Below the pieces are notes generated by a model. That model ran no database searches and was not told where the DNA came from. It saw only the letters and a list, made by a program, of their open reading frames with translations. Below, piece after piece: positions 2 to 20,000 of a DNA stretch of 20,000 bases. The stretch comes from an uncultured virus (IMG/VR IMGVR_UViG_3300028591_000172) (Duplodnaviria; Heunggongvirae; Uroviricota; Caudoviricetes). The stretch lies in the IMG/VR virus record IMGVR_UViG_3300028591_000172. One strand, 5' to 3'. A program made the translations under genes and the position numbers. Numbering within the stretch: the stretch's first letter is position 1; each line of letters begins with the position of its first letter.

Positions 2-3000
2 GAAGAATTGTTCGCAAAGAATATAGAACGTTATTTAAACGATATTACAGATCCACAAGAAAAAGTTAAAGCTGTTGCCGCAATCTTAAGATATCACGCA
101 CTTTCAGGAGAACGTGGAAAGAATTTACAATTCGCTTTGCTTGGCAGTGATGAATACTTGAGTGGTTTAAGAGATAGTTATTTAAAAGATCCAATCAAAC
201 CAGGCCAATTCTCTGTTGATGGAAGACAATATGATGCCATTAAAGAAGTTGGTAAAGGTAAGAAGATTGTTTCATTAGACTTGGAAAACTTCTACAAAGA
301 CGTTAAAGGTGATGAAAAGATTTACGAAATTGGTTTTGCTATGTTCGACGGCAATGATGAATTAGATTTCGACGCATCTAAACCAACTCAATATAGAATA
401 TTAATTAAGTATGATGATGAAGAATACTTAGAAGACACTATTAAAGGTTATAGAACATTGGCTTCTGATTCCACAGATTCAAGAAAGAAAGCATCATTTA
501 AAAACTATGTCGACAATACAAATCTTACTAGAGATAGATTAGTAAAGAATTCTGATGGACAATACATTTATGTTATTCATATTTCATCAGGAGTGAATGC
601 TAATGAAGTATTTACCAAAGCTATAAACAAAATATTATCAATGGCAGGAAATGACTATGTTGTATTAGGTCACAATACTAAAGGTCAAGATTCTGACTTT
701 GATAAGATTAGAAATCAATTCGGAGTTGATATGTATAAGTTACTTAATGGAAAACTTAACATAGATACTTTAATCGATGTAGCTAAAAACGGTTATGCTA
801 CAGATGCTAAGATTAATGAATCATCATTGTCATTAGAAAACTTAGCCAAACAAATGGGAATCGAATACGACGCACACTCCGCTGTAGATGATGCTATATT
901 CACCTATCAATATTTCTTATGGAAAATGAAAAATCAAATCGATGTTGACAAGATGAAGTCAGGATTATATGAAGAATTCGAACACATCTTAGAAAAAATC
1001 GGAGCACAAGATATTGACAGAGATCAACTCAATAGAGAACTTTCTAAAATCAAAGTTGATGGTCAAGAAGTTTCGTTTGCTGATTTCTGGCAAGGTGATG
1101 AATTTAAAGATACATATGAGAAGTATGGAACAAAACTTACTAGTGATATAATTCAAAACTTAATTAATTATAGAAACGCTGTATTCAATAGCGATGAAGC
1201 TAGTTACATTAGAAAGAGAGCAACAAACGTTGAACATGATTTGATATATGAAGCTCAATCTGCACATATAACTTGGTTATCTCACCATGATCAAAATGGT
1301 AATAGTAACTTAGATAATTTCAGAGAAAGAATCAGTTTGTTTATTAAACCAAACGAAAATGGTCAAGTAACAAGAACTGAATATACTAACGGTATGAAGC
1401 TATTAAATTCTGTCTTCTTAGATTACAGAACAAGAAAGATGGATGGAGATAGAAACTTCAGAATAGAAGATTTCTTAAGAATGGACACCGATGAAATAAT
1501 CGATGCCGCAAGAAACAAACTTCCTGAATTACATATAACAAAAGAAGAATTAACAAATTATGTTAACGCTTATACATCTTCTCAAGAATTTGAAGATAGT
1601 AAACTAACATCAGAAAAAACATTTGCTTCTAATGCTATATATAACATTTATGATGAAATAGGAAAAACTATTGGATTAGATGGTTTTGATGACGGAACAA
1701 AGATTCTCTTATTTGATATCATGTCTGGTCTTAAGACTGGTAATTTTGCCGAAGCATTTAGAACTAATGCTAATGGCCAAAAAGAATTCATTGTTAAATA
1801 TAATGGCCCAGCTTACGAAAAGAGTTATTATGTTAAGTCATTAGAAGATGCCATTAATGATTTCGCAGCATCTGTTGATGTCCAAAGAGAATGGACGATG
1901 CCTTCAGGTGTAATTCCTGGTCAAACTGTAAAATTAGAAAATGGTGATGATTATAGTTTCAAATCTACAGATGTAGGTATGACACGTCAAAAGTTCCAAG
2001 AATTATTTGGTGGAGCAACTATTGAAGATTATAGAGAATCATTAGGACTATCTGATGGCGATGATTTATTCATACAATTATACAGAGTTCCTGGTGTTGG
2101 ACAAAACGTTATACATACATACAGAGTAAGGATATTAGATAGCAACAAATATGATAATGTTCTTCTTGCTCATGATATATTCGCCGCATACCATAGTGGT
2201 GACTTTGATGGTGACAAAGTTATAATTTTAAAACCAACAAAGTATTTACAAAAAGTCGGTAATCAATTAATGAATTCAACCGATAAAATATGGGAAGTTT
2301 CTGATAAGATAATTTCCAAACTATATAGCGACTCAGCTTATGATTCAGCAAGAGATGACCAAGTAGTTAATAACTTCGCAGATTACTGTGAACAAGAATT
2401 TGGCTTACAAACAACTTTACAAAAAGTTTTCGATTACGCTAGAGATTCCTCTTCAGTTAATCCAACAGAAAGAGATGCTTATGAAAAAGCTTTAGCATAT
2501 GCGTTAGATCAAGAGTTAATTAACAAAGTTAACGCCAAAGAATATCCAACCTTATCCACAGATGAGACTTCTAAACAACTTTATTATTCTGATTTCCTCA
2601 CCGATAAGTATTCAGATGAAGTGGTGAGAAGACTTTCATTAGATACAAAATTCTTAATCGACCAAATTATTTCAGTTAAAGACTCAGCTACAGGTTTCGC
2701 ATCTAAAAAATACAAACCATTATTAGAAGGTTTTAGAAAAACAGTAGAAAATGCCGCTGACTTATTTACATATAATCAAGTTGCTTTATCAAAAACAACT
2801 AAGTTAAGACTAGCTCAAGCTATAGAAAATGACGCCGATAATGTTTTCAAATTTATTAAACAATCAATAGGCGAAACATATTCAGCTAAAATCTTTACAT
2901 CAATAGATGAATATCTTGATGACGTATTTAATGATTCAACATTATCTTCAAAACAAAAAGCACAAGGAGTTATCAATGCTTTGAAGATGGCTGAATTATT

Positions 3001-6000
3001 ATACAGAGGAACAGATGAATTTAATGACATGTTCAATAAATTAACTGATGACATGATTAATAATGCTGATTTATCTGACGAGAGAACTAAAGTTAAAAAG
3101 CTTATTGAATACGCTTCATATAACCAAGTTGATACTAATGGTAGAACAATCGAAGATGTAGACAGATTGTCATTAAATGATTTAACAAATCTTAAATATA
3201 ATATAGTTAATAATCTAGATCCAATGATGAGTAGCAGAAGATTCATGGCCACATCTGGAGATACACATCTATCAAGCAATATAGTAACAAACATCAGGTC
3301 ACAAATTAGTAAGTTGACTGATGCTTCTAAAATTAAATATATTGACGCTGACAATTCAACCAACTGGTTTGCTCCAGAAATACTTTTAGCTACAGGAATG
3401 GTTAGAAAACTTACTCCTGATACATTTGCCGAAATAAGTGGAAGATTTACTTTAGCAAGTTCAAGAACCGTTAATGTTAATATTGGTGATTTATCAGAAG
3501 ACCAATTACCAAAACTCAGTGCTGCTTTCTCTAAACGTTTACATGGTTCGATAAAAATCGGAGACCAAGTAATAGTTAGACCAGGAGAAAAAGTTTTATC
3601 AGCAGATGATAAATATGGTAATCACTATACAAATATATTCGATGAGGACGGTGAACTATTAGTTGACCTTAAAGATATTGTTTCTTTGAACGTACAAAAA
3701 GAAATTTCATTGTTTGGTAACAAACTAGGCATCTTAGGTTCAGGCGACATGAAAGGAACACAAGAACTTTCAGTTGCTCATTCAAGAAATAATTATGGTA
3801 TTGGTTTGGATATAGAATCGTTAAATCAATATAGAGAATTGTTAGGTTCTTACTATTCAATAATAAATTCATTTATTGAAACAATAGAACAATCAAAAGG
3901 TAAAATACCTGGAGAAAAATTGACACAATTAAAAGATTTAAATACAAGATTACATCAAGCATCTCAAGAACAAGCACAGCTTACAGCAGATTATAAGAAA
4001 GCTAGAGATGAATTTGATGCTGACCAAATTGCTCATGGTGAACCAACATGGGACCAATTAGCAGCAATGTTCCGTTCAGCAAGTGAAGAAGAAAGAGATG
4101 AAATTAGATTACTACATAAATCCGTAAGTATGTTTTATCAACCAGATATACAGAAATCTATTAATTTACAAAACTCAATCCAAGATCAAATAGATAATTT
4201 GTTATCTGAATTAGGATTCAAAAATAAAGAAGCGTTATATAAACAATTAAATGAATCAAAAGAAAAGATTCAAGAATTAAGAAGAGCAATGAGACAACAA
4301 ATTGGAGAAAGACAAATTGCTCAAAGAGAAAAGAACTTACTTAAAGATTCAGTTGATTTAAAAGAACGAACAATGCTTTATGATTTGATATCAGATATCG
4401 GAATTGATCCAGCTATGTATGATATAGACAATATGGATATCAAAGATGTCAGAAATCTTTATAAAGAATTTAAAAAGATTGACTATGTCGCATCAGAAAA
4501 TTTACTTTCTTATGCCAAGCAAAGTGCCAATATGCCTGGATACGAAATCATTTATCTCGATGAACACATGAATCCTATTGATGATCCAAACAAAGCTGTG
4601 TTTACAAAAATTAAATGTAGAATGTTCTGCCCAGAAGCATTTAAGTTCTGGGATACTAGTGCTGATACATCTAAAATTGACACAATCAGTTATGTCAATG
4701 ATAGAACAAATCCTGATTCATTAGTTCAATTACATGGCAAATGGTATAGCAAAGCAAAAGATGGTAACGGTAATTGGGTTTACGTTTATGATTCCACGAA
4801 AGAAAATGAAATTAATAACGTAATATCAAAAGCTAATACGCCATGGGCTAGCTCAACAAATGGAACTAGAGTGTATAGAACATTGTTGGCTAAGGTACTC
4901 TATGAAAATTGTTCAGCAGCACAAGCAGAATTAAAGGACATCAATGTTTTAATGAAACAAATGCTTGATGGTAATTCTACATCAGGTTCTTTAGGTGCCG
5001 GCATTATCAATAAAATATTCACAATGATGACTGATGATGAAGTTAGAAAACTTTATACATCAGATGATCCATATATTAAATTTATTCTAAATAAAATGAG
5101 AAGCTTTATGCCTAAGCTTACAGCTACAGACGCTAAAGAATGGGCTGGCTCACAAAAATTATTATCTAAAAACAAGGCTAAAGAATTAGCTAAAAACAAA
5201 ACGCTTCTTTACTACTACACAAAAGCTATTGGAAATATTTTAAATGACCAGGCTTTCTTAAGTGATCAAGAAGCAATGAAAAACGGATATCCATTATTAG
5301 ATAACTCTGATACATATTATCCATTAGAAAAATTGATTGCTGAATTAGCTACAGTATCAGGTGTCAAAGACAGTTATGTGAAATCATTCTCACATAATGT
5401 TAATGACTATACTCTTATGGGATTGCTTAACTTCGTCAATGGTAGAAGTGGCAATCAATCTAACGAATTTAATCCTCAATCAAACTGGGATAGTATTGTT
5501 TATCCAAGAAAAGAAGCAGCAATTGCTGGTCCTGCTGGAGGAAAACTTGGCGATACTGCTGAAGGTCAAAAAGGAATTACTCCAGACCAACAAATCATGT
5601 CTCAATATTACGGTGCCAATAGAACTCTTTCTGAATTATTAGGAATGAATAAAGGAAATAATATTTCTCAATCAAGGGATAGTTTCTTACACGGTGACTT
5701 TGCTACTAGATTCACAGATGAAAATAGATCTAGAGAATTAAGCAAAGAATATTATCCACAAAAAATGGGTGATGACCTTGCCGCTTATGCTAGCGATACT
5801 CCAAATAGATTAGCAAAAGCAAGAATGTTAACAACCAAAGAAGACAGAATGATAGCAGATATTGCTCCTCGTTTCCTTGGTGTTGACAGTAATCTTGGTA
5901 TTTCATATACATCCAAGCCACAAATGTTTGATGGAACTTATGGAGATTATGCTAATGAAGCTACATCAGAAATCTATGGCTGGGCTAGACACGATATGAT

Positions 6001-9000
6001 TCAACCAATAGTAGATAGTATTAAACAATCAATCGGTGACACAGAAACATTAGGTAAAAATTTCTTATCAAGCGGAGAAGAAATGGACATGGATGACGTT
6101 TCTGAACTCGCAAAAGGTATCAATAAACCATCTCTTAATGATATTGATAATTTATCTAAAGAGGATTTGGAAGATTTAAGATACATTCAAGGTTATAACG
6201 TTTCTGATCAAGCAACCTCTTTATACAATACTGAAGGTGACCAATACGATAAAGCTATCGAATCGTTAATGAAATCTAAAGCCATTGCTGATTTTGATAT
6301 AGATAGATTAGCATCAAGTAATATCAAACAACCTGGTATGGACAGAGCTATAGTTTCTTATAACATAAATGTAAAAACATATAGAAATCAATTGCTTGGA
6401 AAAGAATTCATTGAAGTTTATAACTATTTAGATTCAAACACTTCATTAAAGAATGGCTATAACGAATACACAAGAATTAAAAATTTATTGTCATCATTAC
6501 AATACTGTGATGAAAAGTTAGAAAAATTAAATTCATTTACAGACAAGAGAGCTGACAGCAGCATTAAATACTACACAAATACAAGAGCCGAAATACTTAA
6601 AGCATTAAATGTTACTGATGAAGCTCAAATAGAAACTGTTAAACAAAATGTAGAAAGATATCATAAACTCTACGCTAATGTAGACACCATGATTTCTACA
6701 GTTTGTGAAAGACTTTATGCAGCTCAAAAAGCTTATTGTAACGCAACTGGTCAAGTCTGTCCTTCAAGAGAAAGATTCTTCTTGCCTACAGGTGTTAATG
6801 GAAACTCTAACCAAGAAAGAAAAGAAAATGCTTCCATATTATTCGCAGGAACGGCTAAATATAATACAAATCCATTTGCTATAAGAAAAGAAACAACTGG
6901 TTTGAATCCAGCTAATGCTTATACTGAATTTGATGCGTTAAAAAATATAGCATCAGTAGCAACAGAAGTTGGAAAGCTTCAAGCTATATTAACTTATAGA
7001 GAAGAAGCAAAATCAAACGGTGCTATGAATAACGCTTTATCATTTGATGAAACATGTAAAGTTGTTAATAAACTTATTACTGTTGATTCAATGAATAATT
7101 CAGGAGCAACAGAAATCGATAGCGTAGAATATAAAGGATATTCATTCTTCACAACATCTGTATTGGATCAATTGGGAATGAATCACTTCTCAGAAAATCC
7201 AAACGCTAAAACATCTTGTGCTAAATATGCTCATCTTTATAACAGTATTTACAATCAACTTATTGCTCCATTAAAAGAAACTTACGGCGACATTACATTT
7301 GGAAACTTAATGTCAATGTATTTAGCTAATCCACAAGATAAAATTCTTGATAGAGCATTAAAAGGTTATGCCGCAATGATGGACATAGTTGGCAAGATAA
7401 CAACTATTCAAATTGAACGTGGTGAAAAAACAACTGTTACAGATGAAATCTATCAAGCAATAACCAAATATGCTAATGAACATGACTTAGCAATAGTTGA
7501 CCAATTCGGTAGAAAATATGATAAAGACTTATCACAATTTAAAGCATTAACTCCATTTGCTACAGATGACTATATATTCAGAGCTACTCATGGTGGTTTA
7601 GCAACTGAAGGAACTTATGAACAAAACGTAGCTCTTGATGCTTTGCGTGGTGACTTATACTTCATGAATAGAACTGTTGCTGATGCTACACAAAAAATGT
7701 TCTACACAAGAGAACCATCTCAAATTAGTAAATTTGCCAACACAGTTAAGAGTTATGCTACAAGATTGATTATGGCAAATCCTGCTAAGTTTGTTTCTCG
7801 TATTATTAACTTCTCAATGTTTGACTTGAACAGTTCATTGCTTACAGGAAACTGGAGTATGGTCAAAGAACTTCCGAAAATTACAAAAGAACTTAGTGGT
7901 TATTTACAAAGCAATGGTGAATATTGCCCTGACTCATTAAGAGAATTCATGAACGTTACAGGAATTGATCCACTAAAAGACCAACAAGTTTTCTATGGTG
8001 AAACAATTGGTGGAGCTAAAACGGCATACGGAAAATGGATTGGCAAACAATTCACAGCTCAGCATTTAGCTAACAGATATGCTTTATGGTTAAGTATTAA
8101 AAACACAATTGATAACGAAGGTATTGATTCTGTTTACAGTAAACTTGGAAACTCATATTATCTCAAAGACCAAATAAAAGAAATGTATGAGAATATGAAA
8201 ACCACAGAATCAGAAGATTCATTAAGTTCATCAGCATCTGCTAGAATTGCCGCTATGGTAGTTGCTAATCAATATGGAACATACAATGATATGCCAGGAT
8301 TAGCGGGAAGTATGAGCCAACATGGATTTATGTTTACAACTTTCCCAATGGCTTTACTAAGATTTGCTAAAAATGAAATTAGATCTGGTGCGTTTGCTAT
8401 TAAAGAAATATTCACAGGAGCAGCCGATACAGCAACTCTTAAATATTTAGGCAGACAACTTGGTTCATTAATTAGTGTTGTAGCAATTCAAGCAGCATTA
8501 CAAATATTGCCAGCATTGTTAATCGCTAATGGTGATAAAGATGAAGAAAAGGAATTAGTTGAAGAAGTCATAAAGAACGATACTTCATTAGATTTATTCC
8601 AATCCATCCTTCTAAACGATGCTGTATATAATACATCAACATTATGGAATCCAATCTATGGTGTTAAATCTATGGTTGCTAATCCAATAATTGATGCTGT
8701 CGAAAAGAATAAAGACAATACATCTGATGGAAAAGCATTACAAATATTTGGAGATGCACTTGCTACATACTTCAATCAAAACATTTGGAATAGAATTAAT
8801 CCATTGGTAACAACAATTCCTAATATCGTTATTCCTAAAAATGATTGGATAAATCCATATGGTAATCAAGGAACTGACTTCTTTGATAACTTAGCTAGAA
8901 AGACATTGTCATACGCACTAGGTACAAATGGTGCTAATGCGTTTATGAATACAGTTGATTCAGCTAAATATGATGACGATGCTAACTTCATAAATACCTT

Positions 9001-9811
9001 AGGCAATGGTTTGAACAATGCCTTAAGAGAAGAACTTGGTAATTCTAAATCTTATAAATCAAGTTGGAAGAATTATAATAATGCTATCAGTATCATCTAT
9101 GATTACAAGAAAGCATCTGATTCTTCTTCATATGATGTTACATCGGCTAACTTTGATAAGAACTTATATTCTGGTTTAAAAGCAAAACTTAAAAATGCGA
9201 TGAAAATAAAATCATCACCTGTTGTTATTTATAATATAATTAAAGAAGCGTTAGATCAGAATGTTAGTAAGAACGAAATCAAATCAGCCATTGCTGCTGT
9301 ATCTGTAAGAATTCAAATTCAAAGATTAGCTAATAAGCAAGACTTCTTCAATTCACTTTCACAAAAAGATTATAATTCTGTGAAGTCTGCTCTAGCTTAT
9401 GAAGATAGTATATTCCCTAACTTAGATGATCTTTATGTCGAGACAGTTGAACAAGAACAACAACATAAGATAAATACTTCTACTCCATCATTCTCATATA
9501 CAAGTTCATTAAAAACTTATGGTTATAACTATCCAACATATCAAACTTATTCAAGTAATAATTACAGACGCTCATACAAAAATAATTACTATAATAATTT
9601 GAGCAACTGGAATACAAATACTTATAAGAAAAAATATCAATACAATCAACAATGTTCAAATCCAATAAATACTTATAATCAAGCTATGAACAATATTAAT
9701 TATGGTGTTTCAACTGACATCTGGGGTAATCAAACAAGACATTACACTGATGGAACTGAGTATACCGTAAGACAACAAGGTATGCCTTTCCCAGGAGGAA
9801 ATAAAAAGTAA
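2..9811 (+). CDS. Giant multidomain virion protein (5'-truncated, >3,267 aa): DEDDh exonuclease + two-barrel (DPBB) RNA polymerase + helical ejection-protein-like C-terminus; putative virion RNA polymerase
   Basis: The frame is open from the window edge (GAA GAA TTG at 2-10) to TAA 9809-9811, so the true start is probably upstream. Motifs seen: DLE / GHN..D / HSAVDD (DEDDh); LYRVP...AAYHSGDFDGDKV (beta'-like catalytic loop); GNKLG..MKG (beta-like). It sits directly upstream of the terminase-portal-capsid genes. Confidence 0.85.
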   Translation, partial: EELFAKNIERYLNDITDPQEKVKAVAAILRYHALSGERGKNLQFALLGSDEYLSGLRDSYLKDPIKPGQFSVDGRQYDAIKEVGKGKKIVSLDLENFYKDVKGDEKIYEIGFAMFDGNDELDFDASKPTQYRILIKYDDEEYLEDTIKGYRTLASDSTDSRKKASFKNYVDNTNLTRDRLVKNSDGQYIYVIHISSGVNANEVFTKAINKILSMAGNDYVVLGHNTKGQDSDFDKIRNQFGVDMYKLLNGKLNIDTLIDVAKNGYATDAKINESSLSLENLAKQMGIEYDAHSAVDDAIFTYQYFLWKMKNQIDVDKMKSGLYEEFEHILEKIGAQDIDRDQLNRELSKIKVDGQEVSFADFWQGDEFKDTYEKYGTKLTSDIIQNLINYRNAVFNSDEASYIRKRATNVEHDLIYEAQSAHITWLSHHDQNGNSNLDNFRERISLFIKPNENGQVTRTEYTNGMKLLNSVFLDYRTRKMDGDRNFRIEDFLRMDTDEIIDAARNKLPELHITKEELTNYVNAYTSSQEFEDSKLTSEKTFASNAIYNIYDEIGKTIGLDGFDDGTKILLFDIMSGLKTGNFAEAFRTNANGQKEFIVKYNGPAYEKSYYVKSLEDAINDFAASVDVQREWTMPSGVIPGQTVKLENGDDYSFKSTDVGMTRQKFQELFGGATIEDYRESLGLSDGDDLFIQLYRVPGVGQNVIHTYRVRILDSNKYDNVLLAHDIFAAYHSGDFDGDKVIILKPTKYLQKVGNQLMNSTDKIWEVSDKIISKLYSDSAYDSARDDQVVNNFADYCEQEFGLQTTLQKVFDYARDSSSVNPTERDAYEKALAYALDQELINKVNAKEYPTLSTDETSKQLYYSDFLTDKYSDEVVRRLSLDTKFLIDQIISVKDSATGFASKKYKPLLEGFRKTVENAADLFTYNQVALSKTTKLRLAQAIENDADNVFKFIKQSIGETYSAKIFTSIDEYLDDVFNDSTLSSKQKAQGVINALKMAELLYRGTDEFNDMFNKLTDDMINNADLSDERTKVKKLIEYASYNQVDTNGRTIEDVDRLSLNDLTNLKYNIVNNLDPMMSSRRFMATSGDTHLSSNIVTNIRSQISKLTDASKIKYIDADNSTNWFAPEILLATGMVRKLTPDTFAEISGRFTLASSRTVNVNIGDLSEDQLPKLSAAFSKRLHGSIKIGDQVIVRPGEKVLSADDKYGNHYTNIFDEDGELLVDLKDIVSLNVQKEISLFGNKLGILGSGDMKGTQELSVAHSRNNYGIGLDIESLNQYRELLGSYYSIINSFIETIEQSKGKIPGEKLTQLKDLNTRLHQASQEQAQLTADYKKARDEFDADQIAHGEPTWDQLAAMFRSASEEERDEIRLLHKSVSMFYQPDIQKSINLQNSIQDQIDNLLSELGFKNKEALYKQLNESKEKIQELRRAMRQQIGERQIAQREKNLLKDSVDLKERTMLYDLISDIGIDPAMYDIDNMDIKDVRNLYKEFKKIDYVASENLLSYAKQSANMPGYEIIYLDEHMNPIDDPNKAVFTKIKCRMFCPEAFKFWDTSADTSKIDTISYVNDRTNPDSLVQLHGKWYSKAKDGNGNWVYVYDSTKENEINNVISKANTPWASSTNGTRVYRTLLAKVLYENCSAAQAELKDINVLMKQMLDGNSTSGSLGAGIINKIFTMMTDDEVRKLYTSDDPYIKFILNKMRSFMPKLTATDAKEWAGSQKLLSKNKAKELAKNKTLLYYYTKAIGNILNDQAFLSDQEAMKNGYPLLDNSDTYYPLEKLIAELATVSGVKDSYVKSFSHNVNDYTLMGLLNFVNGRSGNQSNEFNPQSNWDSIVYPRKEAAIAGPAGGKLGDTAEGQKGITPDQQIMSQYYGANRTLSELLGMNKGNNISQSRDSFLHGDFATRFTDENRSRELSKEYYPQKMGDDLAAYASDTPNRLAKARMLTTKEDRMIADIAPRFLGVDSNLGISYTSKPQMFDGTYGDYANEATSEIYGWARHDMIQPIVDSIKQSIGDTETLGKNFLSSGEEMDMDDVSELAKGINKPSLNDIDNLSKEDLEDLRYIQGYNVSDQATSLYNTEGDQYDKAIESLMKSKAIADFDIDRLASSNIKQPGMDRAIVSYNINVKTYRNQLLGKEFIEVYNYLDSNTSLKNGYNEYTRIKNLLSSLQYCDEKLEKLNSFTDKRADSSIKYYTNTRAEILKALNVTDEAQIETVKQNVERYHKLYANVDTMISTVCERLYAAQKAYCNATGQVCPSRERFFLPTGVNGNSNQERKENASILFAGTAKYNTNPFAIRKETTGLNPANAYTEFDALKNIASVATEVGKLQAILTYREEAKSNGAMNNALSFDETCKVVNKLITVDSMNNSGATEIDSVEYKGYSFFTTSVLDQLGMNHFSENPNAKTSCAKYAHLYNSIYNQLIAPLKETYGDITFGNLMSMYLANPQDKILDRALKGYAAMMDIVGKITTIQIERGEKTTVTDEIYQAITKYANEHDLAIVDQFGRKYDKDLSQFKALTPFATDDYIFRATHGGLATEGTYEQNVALDALRGDLYFMNRTVADATQKMFYTREPSQISKFANTVKSYATRLIMANPAKFVSRIINFSMFDLNSSLLTGNWSMVKELPKITKELSGYLQSNGEYCPDSLREFMNVTGIDPLKDQQVFYGETIGGAKTAYGKWIGKQFTAQHLANRYALWLSIKNTIDNEGIDSVYSKLGNSYYLKDQIKEMYENMKTTESEDSLSSSASARIAAMVVANQYGTYNDMPGLAGSMSQHGFMFTTFPMALLRFAKNEIRSGAFAIKEIFTGAADTATLKYLGRQLGSLISVVAIQAALQILPALLIANGDKDEEKELVEEVIKNDTSLDLFQSILLNDAVYNTSTLWNPIYGVKSMVANPIIDAVEKNKDNTSDGKALQIFGDALATYFNQNIWNRINPLVTTIPNIVIPKNDWINPYGNQGTDFFDNLARKTLSYALGTNGANAFMNTVDSAKYDDDANFINTLGNGLNNALREELGNSKSYKSSWKNYNNAISIIYDYKKASDSSSYDVTSANFDKNLYSGLKAKLKNAMKIKSSPVVIYNIIKEALDQNVSKNEIKSAIAAVSVRIQIQRLANKQDFFNSLSQKDYNSVKSALAYEDSIFPNLDDLYVETVEQEQQHKINTSTPSFSYTSSLKTYGYNYPTYQTYSSNNYRRSYKNNYYNNLSNWNTNTYKKKYQYNQQCSNPINTYNQAMNNINYGVSTDIWGNQTRHYTDGTEYTVRQQGMPFPGGNKK
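263..925 (+). other. DEDDh (DnaQ/RNase T-like) 3'-5' exonuclease domain within the giant ORF
   Basis: ExoI IVSLDLE (D91 at 278, E93 at 284) is followed by IYEIG. ExoII is VVLGHN...DSDF (H222, D230), then IDTL and SLENLA. ExoIII is AHSAVDDA (H290, D295). Numbering follows the track translation. All catalytic residues are present in canonical order. Confidence 0.9.
1870..2240 (+). other. beta'-like double-psi beta-barrel of a two-barrel RNA polymerase, with catalytic DFDGD
   Basis: DVGMTRQKFQELF ... FIQLYRVPGVGQNVIHTYRVRIL ... VLLAHDIFAAYHSGDFDGDKVIILKP parallels bacterial RpoC CGLPKKMALELF ... [22 protein letters not shown] ... [25 protein letters not shown] (recalled sequence). DFDGD is encoded at 2201-2215 and the conserved Arg (R693) at 2084. 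Confidence 0.88.
3370..4520 (+). other. Candidate beta-like double-psi beta-barrel of RNA polymerase, split by a coiled-coil insertion
   Basis: EILLA...PDTFAEISGRFT resembles RpoB VAF...EDSILVSER. IKIGDQVIVRPGEKVL resembles the flap segment IGAEV.GGDILV. VQKEISLFGNKLGILGSGDMKGT resembles KRRIQPGDKMAGRHGNKGV (K1239 at 3722, K1249 at 3752). IDYVASEN at 4478 may match VDIVLNP. Confidence 0.62.
9793..9798 (+). promoter_or_regulatory. Shine-Dalgarno AGGAGG for terminase, inside the last codons of the giant ORF; TAATG stop/start overlap
   Basis: ccAGGAGGaaataaaaagTAATG; TAA 9809-9811 overlaps ATG 9811-9813. Confidence 0.75.
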
Positions 9812-11391
9812 TGGCTCAAACTCTTGAAGTAATCCCTAATTATAGACCTAATCCAAAACAAGTGCTCCTTCACAATGCTCCTGTATCTTATGATGATATC
9901 TGGATCATTCTCTACGGAGGAGCACGTGGTGCTGGTAAGTCTGCTGGTATCTTAGCAGATGCCGTTCAATTCTGTATGACTTATCCAGGAGCAAAGTGTT
10001 GTATTATCCGTGAAACATTAGATGCTGTTAAGCAATCATTCTTAGATAAGCTTCCTACACTTTTCCCTCAATATGTAAATGGTGTGAAGATATATGACTA
10101 TCGTGAAAAGTCCACGTCTTTCTATCCATCACGATGTATCATATTTCCTAATGGAAGTTACATAACCTTACAACGTGTTGCTGATTACAAAGAAGCAATC
10201 GCCAAGCAAGGTTGGGAATTCCATTACCTCGCAGTTGATGAAGTTACCAAGCATGAAGAACGCACTATCAACTATCTATTGACCTGCGTTCGTTCTGCTG
10301 TTATCACAAATAAATACACAGGAAAACCTCTTCGTATTCCTACGAAAGTTGTTTTCGGTTGTAACCCTGGTGGCATCGGTCACAAATGGGTAAAAGAAAG
10401 ATTCATCGACACAACAGTCGTAAAATATAATGAGCACAAAACTCCTATTCAAACTAAAGACCACATAGAAGTTATTGAAGATCCACATAAGAAAGGTGTC
10501 TTCGTTAAACGATTCATCAGATTCATTCCTGCTACATACTTAGACAATCCATTCTTAAACCAATCTTATGTTGCTAACTTAGATTCTCTTCCAGAGCATC
10601 AAAAGCAATTAGATATGTATGGCAACTGGGATGTTGTCGCTGGAAAATACTTCGACTTACATCCTGAACAGATTGTTGAGCCTGGTATGGTCGCACAAGA
10701 TTTACGTAAGTTCTCAGGTCACGTTGAAATCTTCTGTTCCATCGACTGGGGTTATCAACCATCAGCCGCTTGTTGTTTGTGGCACGCTGTCTTTCCAGAC
10801 CATAGAGTAATAACATTCAAAGAGTTGTATACTCGCGATATGGTATTCGAAGATTTCGTTAAACAAATTGCTGAAGATTCTAGAGATATGGAAATCTCTG
10901 CCATCTGTTTACCACACGATATGTTCAGACACGGTGATAGATACCGTGATGATTCAGGAAAGATTATCGGTGAAATGAAATCCGACGTCTTTGAATATTA
11001 TGGTTTACCTCCTGTTGGAGTTGAATCTGGTAAAGGTAAAGTCAGTCTTCGTTACGACAAGATACATTCAGCTTGCTCCCTAAGACACGAAGATGGTGTT
11101 TACAAATTTAGAATTTCTAAAGCATGTGTAAACTTATTAGATGAAATGGATCATGCGGTTCATGATGATGTTGATCCAGTCGTTCTTAAAGGTAGCGACC
11201 ACGCAATTGATGCTTACGGTCACTTCTTAGTTTATTATTCTGATGATATTGAACCATTAGGATTTGAATCTCTAGTAAAGGATAACCGTTCTTATCTACA
11301 AAGATTAATGGATGAAGATGAAGAACGTTTAGAACAAGAAGAGGAAGATGAACTTTCGGTTGCGATTGATAGTATTTATGACGTGTGGTAG
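9811..11391 (+). CDS. terL: Phage terminase large subunit
   Basis: Adenine-binding PNPKQ, Walker A LYGGARGAGKS, Walker B YLAVDE, coupling motif GCNPGG, FIPATYLDNPFL, RNase H-like nuclease IDWG and C-terminal DHAIDA. Confidence 0.96.
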   Translation: MAQTLEVIPNYRPNPKQVLLHNAPVSYDDIWIILYGGARGAGKSAGILADAVQFCMTYPGAKCCIIRETLDAVKQSFLDKLPTLFPQYVNGVKIYDYREKSTSFYPSRCIIFPNGSYITLQRVADYKEAIAKQGWEFHYLAVDEVTKHEERTINYLLTCVRSAVITNKYTGKPLRIPTKVVFGCNPGGIGHKWVKERFIDTTVVKYNEHKTPIQTKDHIEVIEDPHKKGVFVKRFIRFIPATYLDNPFLNQSYVANLDSLPEHQKQLDMYGNWDVVAGKYFDLHPEQIVEPGMVAQDLRKFSGHVEIFCSIDWGYQPSAACCLWHAVFPDHRVITFKELYTRDMVFEDFVKQIAEDSRDMEISAICLPHDMFRHGDRYRDDSGKIIGEMKSDVFEYYGLPPVGVESGKGKVSLRYDKIHSACSLRHEDGVYKFRISKACVNLLDEMDHAVHDDVDPVVLKGSDHAIDAYGHFLVYYSDDIEPLGFESLVKDNRSYLQRLMDEDEERLEQEEEDELSVAIDSIYDVW

Positions 11392-11417
11392 AATCAAAAT
11401 TAGAAAGGACTTTTAAT

Positions 11418-11699
11418 ATGGGTAGATATTTATTAAAATTAAGTCAGGATGTGCCTAATGCTGGCGGTTTTAGAAACATGATTCGAGTTGGTCTTCCTGT
11501 CCAAGAAGATATGGAGAACAATATTTGTATCGTAGCAATAGGTTCTTACGAATTTGTTCCACTTAACAGAAACGTTTTACGTGACGCACTTCTTTCTTCT
11601 CCTGAATTTTGTAAACAAATCTTAGGTTTAGAAATTAAAGATGCTACAATTAAAGAAGAAAAGAAACCAATCAAAAAAGAAGGAGTTAAAAAGAAGTAA
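11418..11699 (+). CDS. Hypothetical phage protein, about 93 aa, lysine-rich C-terminus
   Basis: ORF between terL and portal. ATG 11418 preceded by AAAGGA (11404-11409) is preferred to the track's GTG at 11385. Its stop overlaps the next start (TAATG). Confidence 0.75.
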   Translation: MGRYLLKLSQDVPNAGGFRNMIRVGLPVQEDMENNICIVAIGSYEFVPLNRNVLRDALLSSPEFCKQILGLEIKDATIKEEKKPIKKEGVKKK

Positions 11700-12007
11700 T
11701 GGAAACAGTTATTATTGTTGTTGTTATTACATTGGCTGTCGTTATTGCTTTCATTCTTGGTTTATTAGGAATTCTATTCTACAATAAAATGCTAGCCGAC
11801 AATGAATTAAACAAAAGATTAATATTGATAGCTAAAGAATCAATAGATAAAGAACGTTCCACACAAGAGGAACTTCAACAAGCTTTACTAGATTTAGATA
11901 GAGCTACAAATGAAAATCAATCTGGAACTCCAGCAAATATACAAGAGGACGTAACACCTGATGAACCGTTTAATCCTCATACATATTCTGAAGATTTCGA
12001 GGGTTGA
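11699..12007 (+). CDS. Small membrane-anchored protein (N-terminal TM helix, coiled coil, acidic tail)
   Basis: AGGAG at 11681-11685. Hydrophobic run VIIVVVITLAVVIAFILGLLGILFY, followed by a heptad-like helix. Confidence 0.8.
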   Translation: METVIIVVVITLAVVIAFILGLLGILFYNKMLADNELNKRLILIAKESIDKERSTQEELQQALLDLDRATNENQSGTPANIQEDVTPDEPFNPHTYSEDFEG

Positions 12008-12032: not shown

Positions 12033-13964
12033 ATGAGAGGTAATGCTAAAGATATAGCCACTTATATCGAAATGTTTGTTGATGATTCAATGTCCCAATT
12101 AAATCCATACATTTTACAGGGCAAGCTCAACAACGAATATATAAGTGGGAACCAAAATAAAAAGATTAACGTAAGGCATTTAAAGATTGAAGAAAAGAAA
12201 CCTGATCCACAGGTCTATACAGAAAAGAAAATCTTCAATCGTATTTTGCCTATTTATTTAACTCGTTATGGTATCCTCACACAAAACATGCCAATCCCTG
12301 GAATTATTCCAACAGGTTACGCATCTAAAGATATAGAAGACGCAAACAATGTAAACATCTTTGTTCCTAAGTTTATGAATGACATTGGATACAAAGACAT
12401 ATATAAAAAAATTATTAAATGGACAGACATCTATGGCATCTCATGGATTAAAACCGGTATTGACTGGAGCTATGGTGATGAAATTTGTCGTATTGAAAAT
12501 ACTAAAATTGGTGACACCACTGGAACATTGGTCCTCAAAGAAGGCTCCACATTCCTAACTTTCTGTCCTATCCATGAAATTTTTGTTGATTCATATTATG
12601 TTGAAACAATGGAAGATGTTAATGAATTAGTTCATAGACGTGTCTTCCCTATCGAATACATTAAAAAACGTTGGGGATTTGAAGCAGAGAAAGAAAGCAT
12701 TAATGATGCTAAGCTCTCTACTTATCCTCGCTATTCAAACTTTGGTTTAGCGCAAGCTGGCACTATCGAATACGCATATGTATATGAATATTATAGGAAA
12801 CCAGATGCGTTATATCCTGAAGGTAGATACACAATCTGTTGTAATAAAAAAATAATTTATGACGGAAAACTTCCTTACATAAATGCTGAAAATGATAAGA
12901 GAGTTATACCATTTGACTTCGTAACAATGCAGTCTATTCCAAATAAACTAGTTGGTGTTACAGTATATTCTCAAATCATTCCTATCCAAGATACTTATAA
13001 TTCAATCAAGAACCGTTACCTTGAATACGTTAACCACATTGCTATTGGTCAACTCTATTATTGGGAAGGTTCGTTAGTAAACAAAAATAATTTCACAAAT
13101 AAGCCTGGTAAGCTCATTGGCTTAAAGCGTAATGCCAAAGCTCCACAACCAGTTCAAAAAGATAAACTTTCAAATGAATTCACTGCTTACTTAAAAGCAC
13201 TTGAAGATGACATGTTAGTTACAGCAGGTCTATCTCCATTAACAGCATTCGGCGAAAGCAAATCAAACGTCAGAACTGACGGTGTTGTCGATAAGATGAG
13301 TGAGTCTGATGACAACAAATTAGTTAACGCTATAGATAATTTATCCGAACTTACAGTGAGGGTATTTAAGAAGGTGTTATATCTTGAAAAACAAAGATAT
13401 GATACACTACATAAACAACTCGAACTTGCCAAGAAGGATACTTCTATCTTAAAATATAATCTGCAAGGAGTAGATCCCGAACAATTGTCCATTATTAATC
13501 GAGAATTTTTGATGACAAGTGACCAAGTGTTCGACAAGAAACTACAACAAGCAGGTCAATTCGGTTTATACAATCCTCAATCTGGTTTGTCCTACCGTGC
13601 TAAGAAACAAGTGCTCGACTCTATGAAAGCCTCGTATCTCATTGATACATTGGATCCACAGGAACGAGCTACTTACGACTTATGTATGGATGAGCAACGT
13701 CAGTGGATGGATGGTAAACTGCCTGAAGTGTTCGAATATCATGAACACGCTCGACATATTGCTGAACATAATATATTCAGAATTAGTCCTGAAGTTAGGT
13801 GCCTTAAAGACAAGGACGAGAAAAAGTGGAAACTTCTTCAGGAAGCTCTGGATGCTCATATTAAGGAACATCAGAAATATTTAGAGCAAAATCAACAAAG
13901 TGACGTAATTGCAAATGCCAAGGAAGCACTTAAAGGTACAACTAAAAGAAATAGTCAAGGCTAA
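12033..13964 (+). CDS. Portal protein (podovirus/P22-like size class)
   Basis: AGGAG at 12021-12025. The 643 aa ORF lies between terL and scaffold/capsid. Portal-like segments include IFNRILPI, YGISWIKTGID, CPIHEIFVD, VYEYYRKP..YPEGRY, IIPIQDTYNSIKN and TNKPGKLI. Confidence 0.87.
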   Translation: MRGNAKDIATYIEMFVDDSMSQLNPYILQGKLNNEYISGNQNKKINVRHLKIEEKKPDPQVYTEKKIFNRILPIYLTRYGILTQNMPIPGIIPTGYASKDIEDANNVNIFVPKFMNDIGYKDIYKKIIKWTDIYGISWIKTGIDWSYGDEICRIENTKIGDTTGTLVLKEGSTFLTFCPIHEIFVDSYYVETMEDVNELVHRRVFPIEYIKKRWGFEAEKESINDAKLSTYPRYSNFGLAQAGTIEYAYVYEYYRKPDALYPEGRYTICCNKKIIYDGKLPYINAENDKRVIPFDFVTMQSIPNKLVGVTVYSQIIPIQDTYNSIKNRYLEYVNHIAIGQLYYWEGSLVNKNNFTNKPGKLIGLKRNAKAPQPVQKDKLSNEFTAYLKALEDDMLVTAGLSPLTAFGESKSNVRTDGVVDKMSESDDNKLVNAIDNLSELTVRVFKKVLYLEKQRYDTLHKQLELAKKDTSILKYNLQGVDPEQLSIINREFLMTSDQVFDKKLQQAGQFGLYNPQSGLSYRAKKQVLDSMKASYLIDTLDPQERATYDLCMDEQRQWMDGKLPEVFEYHEHARHIAEHNIFRISPEVRCLKDKDEKKWKLLQEALDAHIKEHQKYLEQNQQSDVIANAKEALKGTTKRNSQG

Positions 13965-17438: not shown

Positions 17439-20000
17439 ATGCCAACCAGAACAAAAGACTATCCTATATATACGTATGATGAACCTGCTGTATACAAGGA
17501 TTTTTCTGGTGGAATAAATACTGATCCTAGTAATGATCATCTATTAGATACAGAATTAAGAGACTGTGTTAATATGACATACTTTTCTGGTGCCTTAGTT
17601 AAACGTCAAGGTGCTAAAAAAATATGTGATGTTGTATGTGAAGATAGTTTATTCAACATTCAAGGAGTATTTCTATTCACATATAAAATTACTTATTTAA
17701 TTGTTGCCGCCGATGGCAAACTTTACCAGGGAATTTATAATGAAGATACAACAATTAGATTAAACAGACTGTATATAAAATACACTAAGCCAACCGAAGA
17801 CAAAGTTTTCGATGAACTTAATGTATTCTCAGGCGTAGAAGAAATAGATTCTAACGATTATATAAAGAGCACAAACCATGAAGGATATGTCCAAACATTT
17901 TTTAGAAACATCCAAACAGACGAAACATTCACTAAAAATCTAAGAGGAGATTTTGACGACATTACTGGTGGTGCTGTTAATGTTGGTGATGTTTTTATTT
18001 CAAATAATACATTTAGATATTTATGTATTAAAAATTTTGTAAAAGAATTCTGGTATCCAAGTGTATCTCAAAAGTGGGAATTATTAGCTTATACAGGTTC
18101 AGAAGCAGAGCCTGGAAGTATTTTTAAATACGTTGAAGACGGCGTTACATATACAATACAAGCTGATGATCCAAGCGTTGAAGCAAAAATAAACGCAATT
18201 ACTTCATCAAATAATGTTCATATTTTTGATATAGATGACAATAGAGTTTGGTACGCTAATGACTTTTGCTATTACGATGGAAAATTTTACAAGTGTAAAG
18301 TAACTCATCAAAATATGCACAACGCTTTAATGAATAACGAATACTTTATTGACTTAACAAATTTAAGCGGAACAAATTTTGTAGAAGAATCATTCTTTGT
18401 TTTCCAAAACTATAGAAAAATTGAAGCCGCTACATTAAATAACAAATTATATATAGCAACAGGAACAAGAATAATTGAAGTTTCTATGTTCGCAAACAAT
18501 CTCGTTGCCCGTCCTATTACTCCGTATCTTTGTAATTATACAGAAATCACAAAGATTGGTTACAACTATATGTCACCATATCCTGAACTTGCTGTCGCTA
18601 GTCAATTAAATACAGTTACAACAAGCATTACAGGAATCAAAGTCACAAAGAAAATTGCTGGTAATTTCTTATTAACTCCAATTATGAATATACAAATAGG
18701 TGACTCAGTTGATAACTATTATTATCGTTGGGAGAAAAATATTAATGGAACCTGGTATACTGTTGTTCCTTTCGCAGCACAACGTCAAGCGTTTTTACCA
18801 TCTGGAGATGGAACATCAATACCAGTAGAAAGAAAAAATTATTATTATATAGAAGTTGATGATGCCGATAAATATACTTATCGTTGTACATTCGCTAGAG
18901 CTTTTGAAACAACAACAGATGTAGTTGAACCATGGAATATGGCATCCAATTATAAAATTGGCGATGTTGTTTCTATAGATCAAAGAATTTTTAAATGTAT
19001 AAATTCACATAATGCTGAAGATATTGTGTATCAGAACAATGTATTTGATTTATACGGATATAAAGCAATTACATCTAATGGCGAAACTAATTACGAACGA
19101 ATTCAATTATGGGAAGAAGTATATAATTTAGAATTATTACTTTATATCCACAAAACAATTAATCAAAGTGGTGAAGTAGTTAATACTTTTACAACAGTTT
19201 ACGATTATAAGATTGATAAAGTTACTGGTGAATATTATGGTTCAGCCACATCAGTTTTGTTTGATAATGAATTAGGAATAAATGATAACTTCTTAATGAT
19301 TCAATCATGTACCAAGGTTATTGCTGATGGTAATAAATTATTATTCTATGCCGACAGATTCAATTCAGGTATGTGGTTCAAAACAATTATAAATAATCCT
19401 GGTTATGTAACTGATAGAGGTAATCTTTCATTCAAAACAAATAAGAATGAAGCAGTTATCAAAGTTATTCCATTCCAAGGGAATATACTTGTGTTTGCTA
19501 ACTCAGATGAAATTGGTGGATCTATTCATTTAGTCCAAGGTAACGGCGATGACTATGACGATCAATCAGGATATTATTCACCATACCAAAGGAGAACAAT
19601 CAATGCGTCCATTACATCATCGAATGCTGACTCTATTCAAATTTGTGACAACATCATTGTGTTTAAATATTTCAATAGAGTTTACTACATTAATGCTAGC
19701 GATCTTAACAATGATACGGTTAAAGTAAATCCTTGTAATGACAGAGTTCTTAACAATGAAGGCGATGTTAAAATTCCTTGGGATGATGATGATTGTATTT
19801 CAGAAGTAACCAAAGATTACTATGCTTTATTATGGAAAGAAAAATACGCACTAGATTCAAGTGGAGATTTAATTCAAACTCATCCTGGTATGCGTGTAAA
19901 AATGTATTACAAAATGTCTGTTCAATATGATGACAACACATATGGTATGCCATGGTTAAGAGATGAAGGAAAAATATTCGACACTAACTTTATTTTATAC
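17439..20000 (+). CDS. Tail nozzle / tail tubular protein B-like beta-propeller protein (3'-truncated, >854 aa), absent from the ORF track
   Basis: ATG 17439 follows GAGGA. My translation shows no stop before the window end: MPTRTKDYPIYTYDEPAVYKDFSGGINTDPSNDHLLDTELRDCVNMTYFSGALVKRQG... The DFSGG..N..GAL.KR.G N-terminus is typical of T7 gp12/P22 gp10-like proteins, and propeller-like strands follow (NKLYIATG, NKLLFY, GNILVF). Confidence 0.82.
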   Translation, partial: MPTRTKDYPIYTYDEPAVYKDFSGGINTDPSNDHLLDTELRDCVNMTYFSGALVKRQGAKKICDVVCEDSLFNIQGVFLFTYKITYLIVAADGKLYQGIYNEDTTIRLNRLYIKYTKPTEDKVFDELNVFSGVEEIDSNDYIKSTNHEGYVQTFFRNIQTDETFTKNLRGDFDDITGGAVNVGDVFISNNTFRYLCIKNFVKEFWYPSVSQKWELLAYTGSEAEPGSIFKYVEDGVTYTIQADDPSVEAKINAITSSNNVHIFDIDDNRVWYANDFCYYDGKFYKCKVTHQNMHNALMNNEYFIDLTNLSGTNFVEESFFVFQNYRKIEAATLNNKLYIATGTRIIEVSMFANNLVARPITPYLCNYTEITKIGYNYMSPYPELAVASQLNTVTTSITGIKVTKKIAGNFLLTPIMNIQIGDSVDNYYYRWEKNINGTWYTVVPFAAQRQAFLPSGDGTSIPVERKNYYYIEVDDADKYTYRCTFARAFETTTDVVEPWNMASNYKIGDVVSIDQRIFKCINSHNAEDIVYQNNVFDLYGYKAITSNGETNYERIQLWEEVYNLELLLYIHKTINQSGEVVNTFTTVYDYKIDKVTGEYYGSATSVLFDNELGINDNFLMIQSCTKVIADGNKLLFYADRFNSGMWFKTIINNPGYVTDRGNLSFKTNKNEAVIKVIPFQGNILVFANSDEIGGSIHLVQGNGDDYDDQSGYYSPYQRRTINASITSSNADSIQICDNIIVFKYFNRVYYINASDLNNDTVKVNPCNDRVLNNEGDVKIPWDDDDCISEVTKDYYALLWKEKYALDSSGDLIQTHPGMRVKMYYKMSVQYDDNTYGMPWLRDEGKIFDTNFILY

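Follow-up and report, generated by a model that had tools for sequence, protein, structure and literature searches.

The DNA analysed here is a 20,000-nucleotide stretch of the uncultured Caudoviricetes virus IMGVR_UViG_3300028591_000172 (the window), and our subject is the giant open reading frame (ORF) at its start, which encodes a barrel resembling the catalytic barrel of crAss-like virion RNA polymerases. The window is organized as one plus-strand operon, in which the giant ORF is followed by the gene for the terminase, two small ORFs, the portal gene, an ORF of 210 amino acids (aa), the capsid gene, two further ORFs and a large ORF that is open at its 3′ end (Table 1). An exhaustive protein search identified the full-length product of the giant ORF as P0003, a protein of 5,771 aa encoded on a 78,398-bp contig, of which the window ORF represents the C-terminal 3,269 aa. 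The reading frame proposed in a preliminary description of this DNA is real. Residue numbers refer to the window ORF, where residue n corresponds to residue n+2502 of P0003. The preliminary description counted from a TTG at base 8, so that its positions are two lower than ours; all residues that it named are present (R695, DFDGD 734-738, D1140, K1241 and K1251 in our numbering).

The stop codon of the giant ORF shares 1 nt with the ATG of the terminase gene, and an identical arrangement is found in a relative (locus L001). In both cases the giant gene heads the operon and portal and capsid genes follow, which agrees with the earlier claim that it is coupled to head assembly.

Table 1. Features of the window, with residue numbers according to the window ORF
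Feature	Position	Strand	Basis or remarks
Giant ORF, C-terminal 3,269 codons of the 5,771-aa P0003	2..9811	+	Open at 5′ end; N-terminal 2,502 aa outside the window
Exonuclease-like insert, DEDDh type (RNase T/DnaQ-like), ~aa 60-316	179..949	+	Pfam RNase_T; candidate catalytic residues D93/E95, D232, H292/D297
Ser-Asp-Glu...Lys word, aa 396-405; upstream barrel-B candidate, unsupported	1187..1216	+	S, D, E and K invariant in 4/4 members
β′-type aspartate barrel (DPBB-A), ~aa 630-745	1889..2236	+	hhalign against crAss gp66-family barrel A; PF00623; BLASTP to gp66
DFDGD metal-binding loop, aa 734-738	2201..2215	+	Sequence; conserved Asp
Helix with strong conservation, aa 876-910; might correspond to the bridge helix	2627..2731	+	Conserved in 4/4 members; predicted helical
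β-rich segment with Asp 1140, GNK 1239-1241, KGT 1251-1253; candidate barrel B	3329..3766	+	Motifs invariant in 4/4 members; AlphaFold2 strands
Hydrophobic, membrane-helix-like segments, aa 2775-2844	8324..8533	+	Hydropathy scan; within the best-conserved part of the chain
Tyr/Asn-rich low-complexity stretch near the C-terminus	9488..9646	+	Present in 4/4 members
Terminase large subunit	9811..11391	+	Pfam Terminase_3, E 6.3e-10; phrog_979, E 7e-37
Small ORFs of 104 and 102 aa, located between the terminase and portal genes	11385-12007		Without Pfam or PHROG match
Portal protein (P22/SU10-like)	12033..13964	+	Pfam P22_portal, E 7.6e-10; SU10_portal, E 9e-9; phrog_156
Probable major capsid protein, 538 aa	14652..16268	+	phrog_9953, E 4.1e-8
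Large 3′-open ORF with CBM5/12 carbohydrate-binding module; probable fibre or spike	17439..20000	+	Pfam CBM_5_12, E 5.8e-7

The central feature of the giant protein is the aspartate barrel with its DFDGD loop, a word that would be expected 0.0037 times in 3,269 aa on the basis of composition. Comparison of the four family members described below revealed that the three Asp residues of the loop are invariant, as are the words flanking it on both sides, while the Gly at the fourth position is replaced by Ser in the three relatives (DFDSD). Since the members are only 32-47% identical over the polymerase region, this invariance suggests selection on the active-site loop. Loss of the motif in homologues, named in the preliminary description as grounds for refutation, is not seen for the Asp residues.

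To which known family this barrel is closest was apparent at the profile level. We aligned the polymerase cores of seven crAss-like phages (phi14:2 gp66 and six phages from 141 tblastn records) and compared this profile by hhalign with the four-sequence core of the giant family. The top match was barrel A with the metal loop in register (E 9.5e-4, score 41.3), far above 14 controls consisting of 2 reversed and 12 block-shuffled alignments, none of which scored higher than 21.1. When both sides were cut to domains, barrel A matched barrel A of the crAss gp66 family with an E value of 6.2e-5 and a probability of 65%. In addition, the barrel is matched in register by PF00623 (E 0.029, 15 bits, below the cut-off of 25.3) and by a profile of 79 bacterial β′ sequences (E 0.03). 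The score of the latter (28.9) was no better than that of reversed controls (26.6 and 25.3), indicating that the nearest known family at the profile level is the crAss-like enzyme. The best local BLASTP alignment of the region is likewise to gp66 (residues 1258-1372, E 0.26). Judged from these alignments and the conserved Asp residues, the giant protein contains a β′-type aspartate barrel similar to that of crAss-like virion RNA polymerases, as the preliminary description had proposed for a β′-like barrel.

The structure prediction suggested in that description was carried out as two AlphaFold2 models (aa 590-1290 and aa 317-1009), each built from a three-row alignment. Both are of low confidence, with a mean pLDDT of ~52. 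At barrel A they show strands and short helices (pLDDT ~55-74), with the loop itself below 50; the DPBB fold expected near aa 620-745 was not confirmed. Foldseek searches with these low-confidence models gave no match at E ≤ 0.001 in either PDB (best 8.6e-2) or BFVD, and VIA-align returned no polymerase. The cluster named by ESM Atlas for aa 600-1290, a eukaryotic RNA-dependent RNA polymerase family (PF05183, score 0.85), lies below the trust level of the tool and was kept as a lead only. Downstream of the barrel, the conserved helix at aa 876-910 resembles the crAss consensus by eye only, and hhalign left it unaligned to the bridge-helix region of the crAss-like enzymes.

A complete active site of this type would require a second barrel. 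In the single-chain two-barrel polymerases compared in two reports (PMC10770324; 10.1101/2020.03.07.982082), barrel B is followed by a connector and then barrel A; for gp66, the connector comprises ~140 aa. The preliminary description had placed β-like motifs, namely the Asp of an xDTF word, GNK and KGT, downstream of barrel A. These motifs are indeed present and invariant in all four members while their neighbours vary, and they are located ~400 aa behind barrel A, which would mean a reversed order if they form barrel B. In such an enzyme, the β′-type barrel (aa 630-745) would be followed by a helical domain of ~360 aa and a β-type barrel at aa ~1,110-1,255 carrying Asp 1140 and Lys 1241/1251. 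The AlphaFold2 prediction of a strand-rich domain at this position (pLDDT 50-75, motif loop <50) is in line with this proposal. So is the prediction of helices throughout the 300 aa that precede barrel A, where a further barrel would hardly find space: aa 426-526 form confident helices (pLDDT ~80), and aa 317-421 are of low confidence.

Profile comparisons of the β-rich segment speak against this arrangement. Against an 81-sequence gammaproteobacterial β profile, the best hhalign match had an E value of 0.4 and was located elsewhere; a more diverse profile built from 15 β sequences, among them jumbo-phage subunits, gave 15.7, less than the reversed control (17.0); and against crAss barrel B the score reached 10.2. 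Pfam yielded nothing at E ≤ 10 and ESM Atlas only porin-like clusters at chance level (≤ 0.82). A scan of the 5,771-aa family alignment over its full length gave no β-like match anywhere. Moreover, a reversed order would depart from that of the single-chain two-barrel polymerases compared in PMC10770324. We regard the reverse-order enzyme as unlikely. Of the two-barrel claim, the β′-type barrel and the three invariant downstream motifs stand, and the second barrel found no support in β profiles, crAss barrel B, Pfam or ESM Atlas.

We also considered a barrel B upstream of barrel A, at aa 317-435. Here, hhalign aligned only a helical stretch to the crAss barrel-B profile (score 19.7, reversed control 16.2) and left the Ser-Asp-Glu word unaligned, and the AlphaFold2 pLDDT at this word is below 50; this candidate was not supported. 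Like the downstream segment, it scored no better than reversed controls when compared with the β and crAss barrel-B profiles. The location of barrel B might be the low-confidence region directly preceding barrel A or the β-rich region that follows it.

Members of the giant family are very rare: the collections searched contained four proteins of 5,525-5,917 aa (P0002, P0003, P0004 and P0006) and one fragment. A word-indexed search of 5.8 billion proteins retrieved P0006 (5,917 aa) and P0002, which has 5,525 aa and shares 45% identity with the window protein across window aa 317-3269. P0004 is a 5,870-aa ORF on a 77,211-bp IMG/VR contig and shares 89% identity with P0006 across its C-terminal 3,700 aa, and the fragment is a single 5-kb piece from the JGI metagenomes. 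No match was obtained from IMG/VR queried with the single window protein, from GTDB genome contigs, or from GenBank phages by tblastn with aa 501-1700 and aa 1501-3269; phmmer with aa 560-1290 over 1.84 billion representatives returned only the query itself, and a search for shorter homologues gave none. Among PDB sequences, phmmer with the whole window ORF found no match, and the four matches of the family HMM (E 0.47-1.8) included no polymerase. PHROGs gave nothing at E ≤ 0.01 for the window ORF and six 870-1,000-aa pieces of P0004, nor did Pfam match four pieces of P0004; apart from barrel A and the exonuclease insert, the giant protein is without a Pfam or PHROG family. A full-text literature search found no published description of this family or of a reversed-order single-chain enzyme.

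Conservation is unevenly distributed along the protein. It is highest in P0003 aa 100-600, in aa 2200-2300 and in the C-terminal 900 aa; across three lineages, the invariant fraction is 0.45-0.66 at both protein ends (P0003 aa 100-600; window 8000-9811) compared with 0.16-0.30 in the polymerase region. This pattern would suit a giant structural or ejection protein without a working RNA polymerase, in which the Asp barrel would be a remnant or would have a different function in nucleotidyl transfer or nucleic-acid binding: conservation is strongest in the two terminal regions with their membrane-like helices, the polymerase region belongs to the less conserved parts, no second barrel emerged from the profile comparisons, and the fourth motif position is Ser instead of Gly in three of the four members. 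Against this reading stand the three Asp residues and their flanking words, which are invariant across such divergent lineages. The change to Ser has a parallel as well, since the experimentally active gp66 has no Gly at this position either (DFDID; 10.1101/2020.03.07.982082), and Ser thus fits the crAss-like family. Overall, we consider the loss of polymerase function improbable.

Judged from motif content and a partial Pfam match, window aa 60-316 resemble an exonuclease of the DEDDh type, inserted ~300 aa ahead of the Asp barrel. RNase_T matches this insert with an E value of 2.2e-4 (22.3 bits, under the cut-off of 24, and over the last third of the profile only) and the whole ORF with an E value of 0.0031; phmmer of the region against PDB sequences gave nothing at E ≤ 1. 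Candidate residues of the Exo I (DxE), Exo II (D) and Exo III (Hx4D) type are kept in the three members that carry the insert. In the fourth, P0002, it is missing as a clean gap, so that the insert behaves as a mobile or optional module. For the Tyr/Asn-rich stretch near the C-terminus, a role as packaging or aggregation signal would be a guess.

The remaining genes of the window provide information on the type of phage. The capsid protein is 79% identical to its homologue in an IMG/VR relative (G001) and found no tblastn match in 50,697 GenBank phage records. The terminase matches 914 of these records, all with less than 60% identity; the best 20 of them are 24-31% identical and include no crAss phage. 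GGAGG-type ribosome-binding sites precede several genes. In a Pfam scan of the window ORF, RNase_T was the sole listing and the T7-type RNA_pol (PF00940) was absent. By its capsid and terminase markers, the phage is not a member of Crassvirales and, as the preliminary description stated, does not look crAss- or N4-like. Taken together, we have identified a rare, unannotated giant protein family that carries a crAss-type catalytic barrel outside Crassvirales.

Both ends of the G001 contig match the capsid gene, and the residues matched at the two ends overlap, which suggests a circular or permuted genome of ~77 kb; the CheckV completeness estimate is 71%. A scan of 43 ORFs of G001 revealed a family A DNA polymerase, DnaG primase, D5-like and SNF2 helicases and a PD-(D/E)XK nuclease, together with an AAA_5 and VWA pair, a Cpn60-like chaperonin, two radical SAM proteins, and collagen and CBM5/12 fibre proteins. 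A VWA/CobT-like protein is encoded two ORFs behind the AAA_5 ATPase (L004:9256-13615), the Cpn60-type chaperonin is encoded at L004:17073-18614, and the two radical SAM proteins are located side by side (L005:13193-15132). No other RNA polymerase was recognized in G001, either in these 43 ORFs or by six-frame searches with PF00562 and PF00623.

Based on these observations, we favor, as reasonably probable, a giant protein that is delivered by the virion and contains a polymerase core of the crAss type. The giant ORF would encode the back half of an internal virion (ejection) protein of a ~78-kb podovirus-like phage, and window aa ~320-1,100 would form a single-chain RNA polymerase core of the phi14:2 gp66 type, in which the three conserved Asp residues would hold the catalytic Mg2+. 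By analogy to the crAss-like proteins gp65-67, N4 gp50, P23-45 gp96 and a 4,551-aa protein of the crAss phage cr1_1, the giant protein is probably produced late, when the head genes are expressed, then packaged and ejected from the capsid along with the DNA, possibly helped by its conserved hydrophobic end regions. In the cell, the polymerase would then transcribe the first phage genes independently of the host polymerase.

An operon position next to head genes is no proof of incorporation into the virion. The polymerase could instead be active but unpackaged, made late and acting in the cell as a late or middle non-virion enzyme, with its adjacency to the terminase gene being incidental; phage P23-45 possesses two enzymes of the two-barrel kind, of which one is a virion protein and the other is not (PMC10770324). 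Yet a chain of 5,771 aa whose hydrophobic ends are conserved and whose gene overlaps the terminase gene by 1 nt in two relatives corresponds to the pattern of packaged giants (crAss-like phages, N4, P23-45). Furthermore, a polymerase made late could not start an infection unless it is carried in, and no other RNA polymerase was recognized in the 43 ORFs scanned and the six-frame searches of G001. An unpackaged enzyme therefore appears very improbable to us.

A more far-reaching version of virion delivery would be a single chain that merges the three crAss cargo proteins and combines a reverse-order two-barrel polymerase with a DEDDh exonuclease, in a phage outside Crassvirales with a host using Shine-Dalgarno sites. 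We consider this combination rather unlikely. If it were true, such a lineage would inject a transcription apparatus that brings along a nuclease of its own.

Two-barrel giant virion polymerases have been described for crAss-like phages and the Thermus phage P23-45 (PMC10770324; 10.1101/2020.03.07.982082). The family reported here would put a crAss-type catalytic barrel into an unrelated-looking phage of ~78 kb with Shine-Dalgarno sites and, if active, would extend injected two-barrel polymerases to a broader range of phages and hosts. Should the second barrel be located downstream, this ancient active site would tolerate a swapped domain order. The preliminary description had suggested a poorly described or new lineage of virion RNA polymerases. 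At the profile level, the crAss-like enzyme is the closest relative of the barrel, which argues for a divergent branch of the crAss-like kind and not for an unrelated lineage.

Compared with the cellular and jumbo-phage subunits, the context around DFDGD resembles the bacterial β′ loop, in keeping with the weak in-register matches to PF00623 and the β′ profile. It differs in that the β′ score does not exceed that of reversed controls and that β profiles are not matched. The N4 enzyme is T7-like, not two-barrel, and its gp50 consists of a central catalytic domain and end domains that are used in ejection and packaging. The analogy to this protein of the Schitoviridae, a giant (~3,500 aa) packaged polymerase (PMC13434306), is functional only. 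P23-45 gp96, which we compared by its description in PMC10770324, likewise has a polymerase of the two-barrel type fused into a virion protein of ~5,000 aa that must pass the tail. In gp96, however, the polymerase occupies the N-terminus, followed by the tape measure of a long-tailed phage, whereas in our case the barrel is central and the portal P22/SU10-like.

The closest counterparts are phi14:2 gp66 (PDB 6VR4) and crAss001 gp50, which share with the giant family the DFDxD loop, the β′-type barrel and a giant protein encoded with structural genes; for gp66, barrel A is in register at the profile level. Beyond barrel A, no similarity to gp66 was detectable, and the giant family has the DEDDh exonuclease-like domain inserted upstream. 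The phages differ as well: the window phage is smaller (~78 kb compared with ~100 kb), its capsid and terminase point away from crAss-like phages, and its genes carry GGAGG ribosome-binding sites, which the Bacteroidota hosts of crAss phages generally lack. In phi14:2, the adjacent virion proteins gp67, gp66 and gp65 add up to 5,398 aa, whereas the giant protein is one chain of 5,771 aa. Such a fusion has a precedent in the Suoliviridae crAss phage cr1_1 (L010, record 64854-78509), where the polymerase resides inside the 4,551-aa protein, a single coding sequence annotated as "hypothetical protein", showing that fused forms of several thousand residues already exist within Crassvirales.

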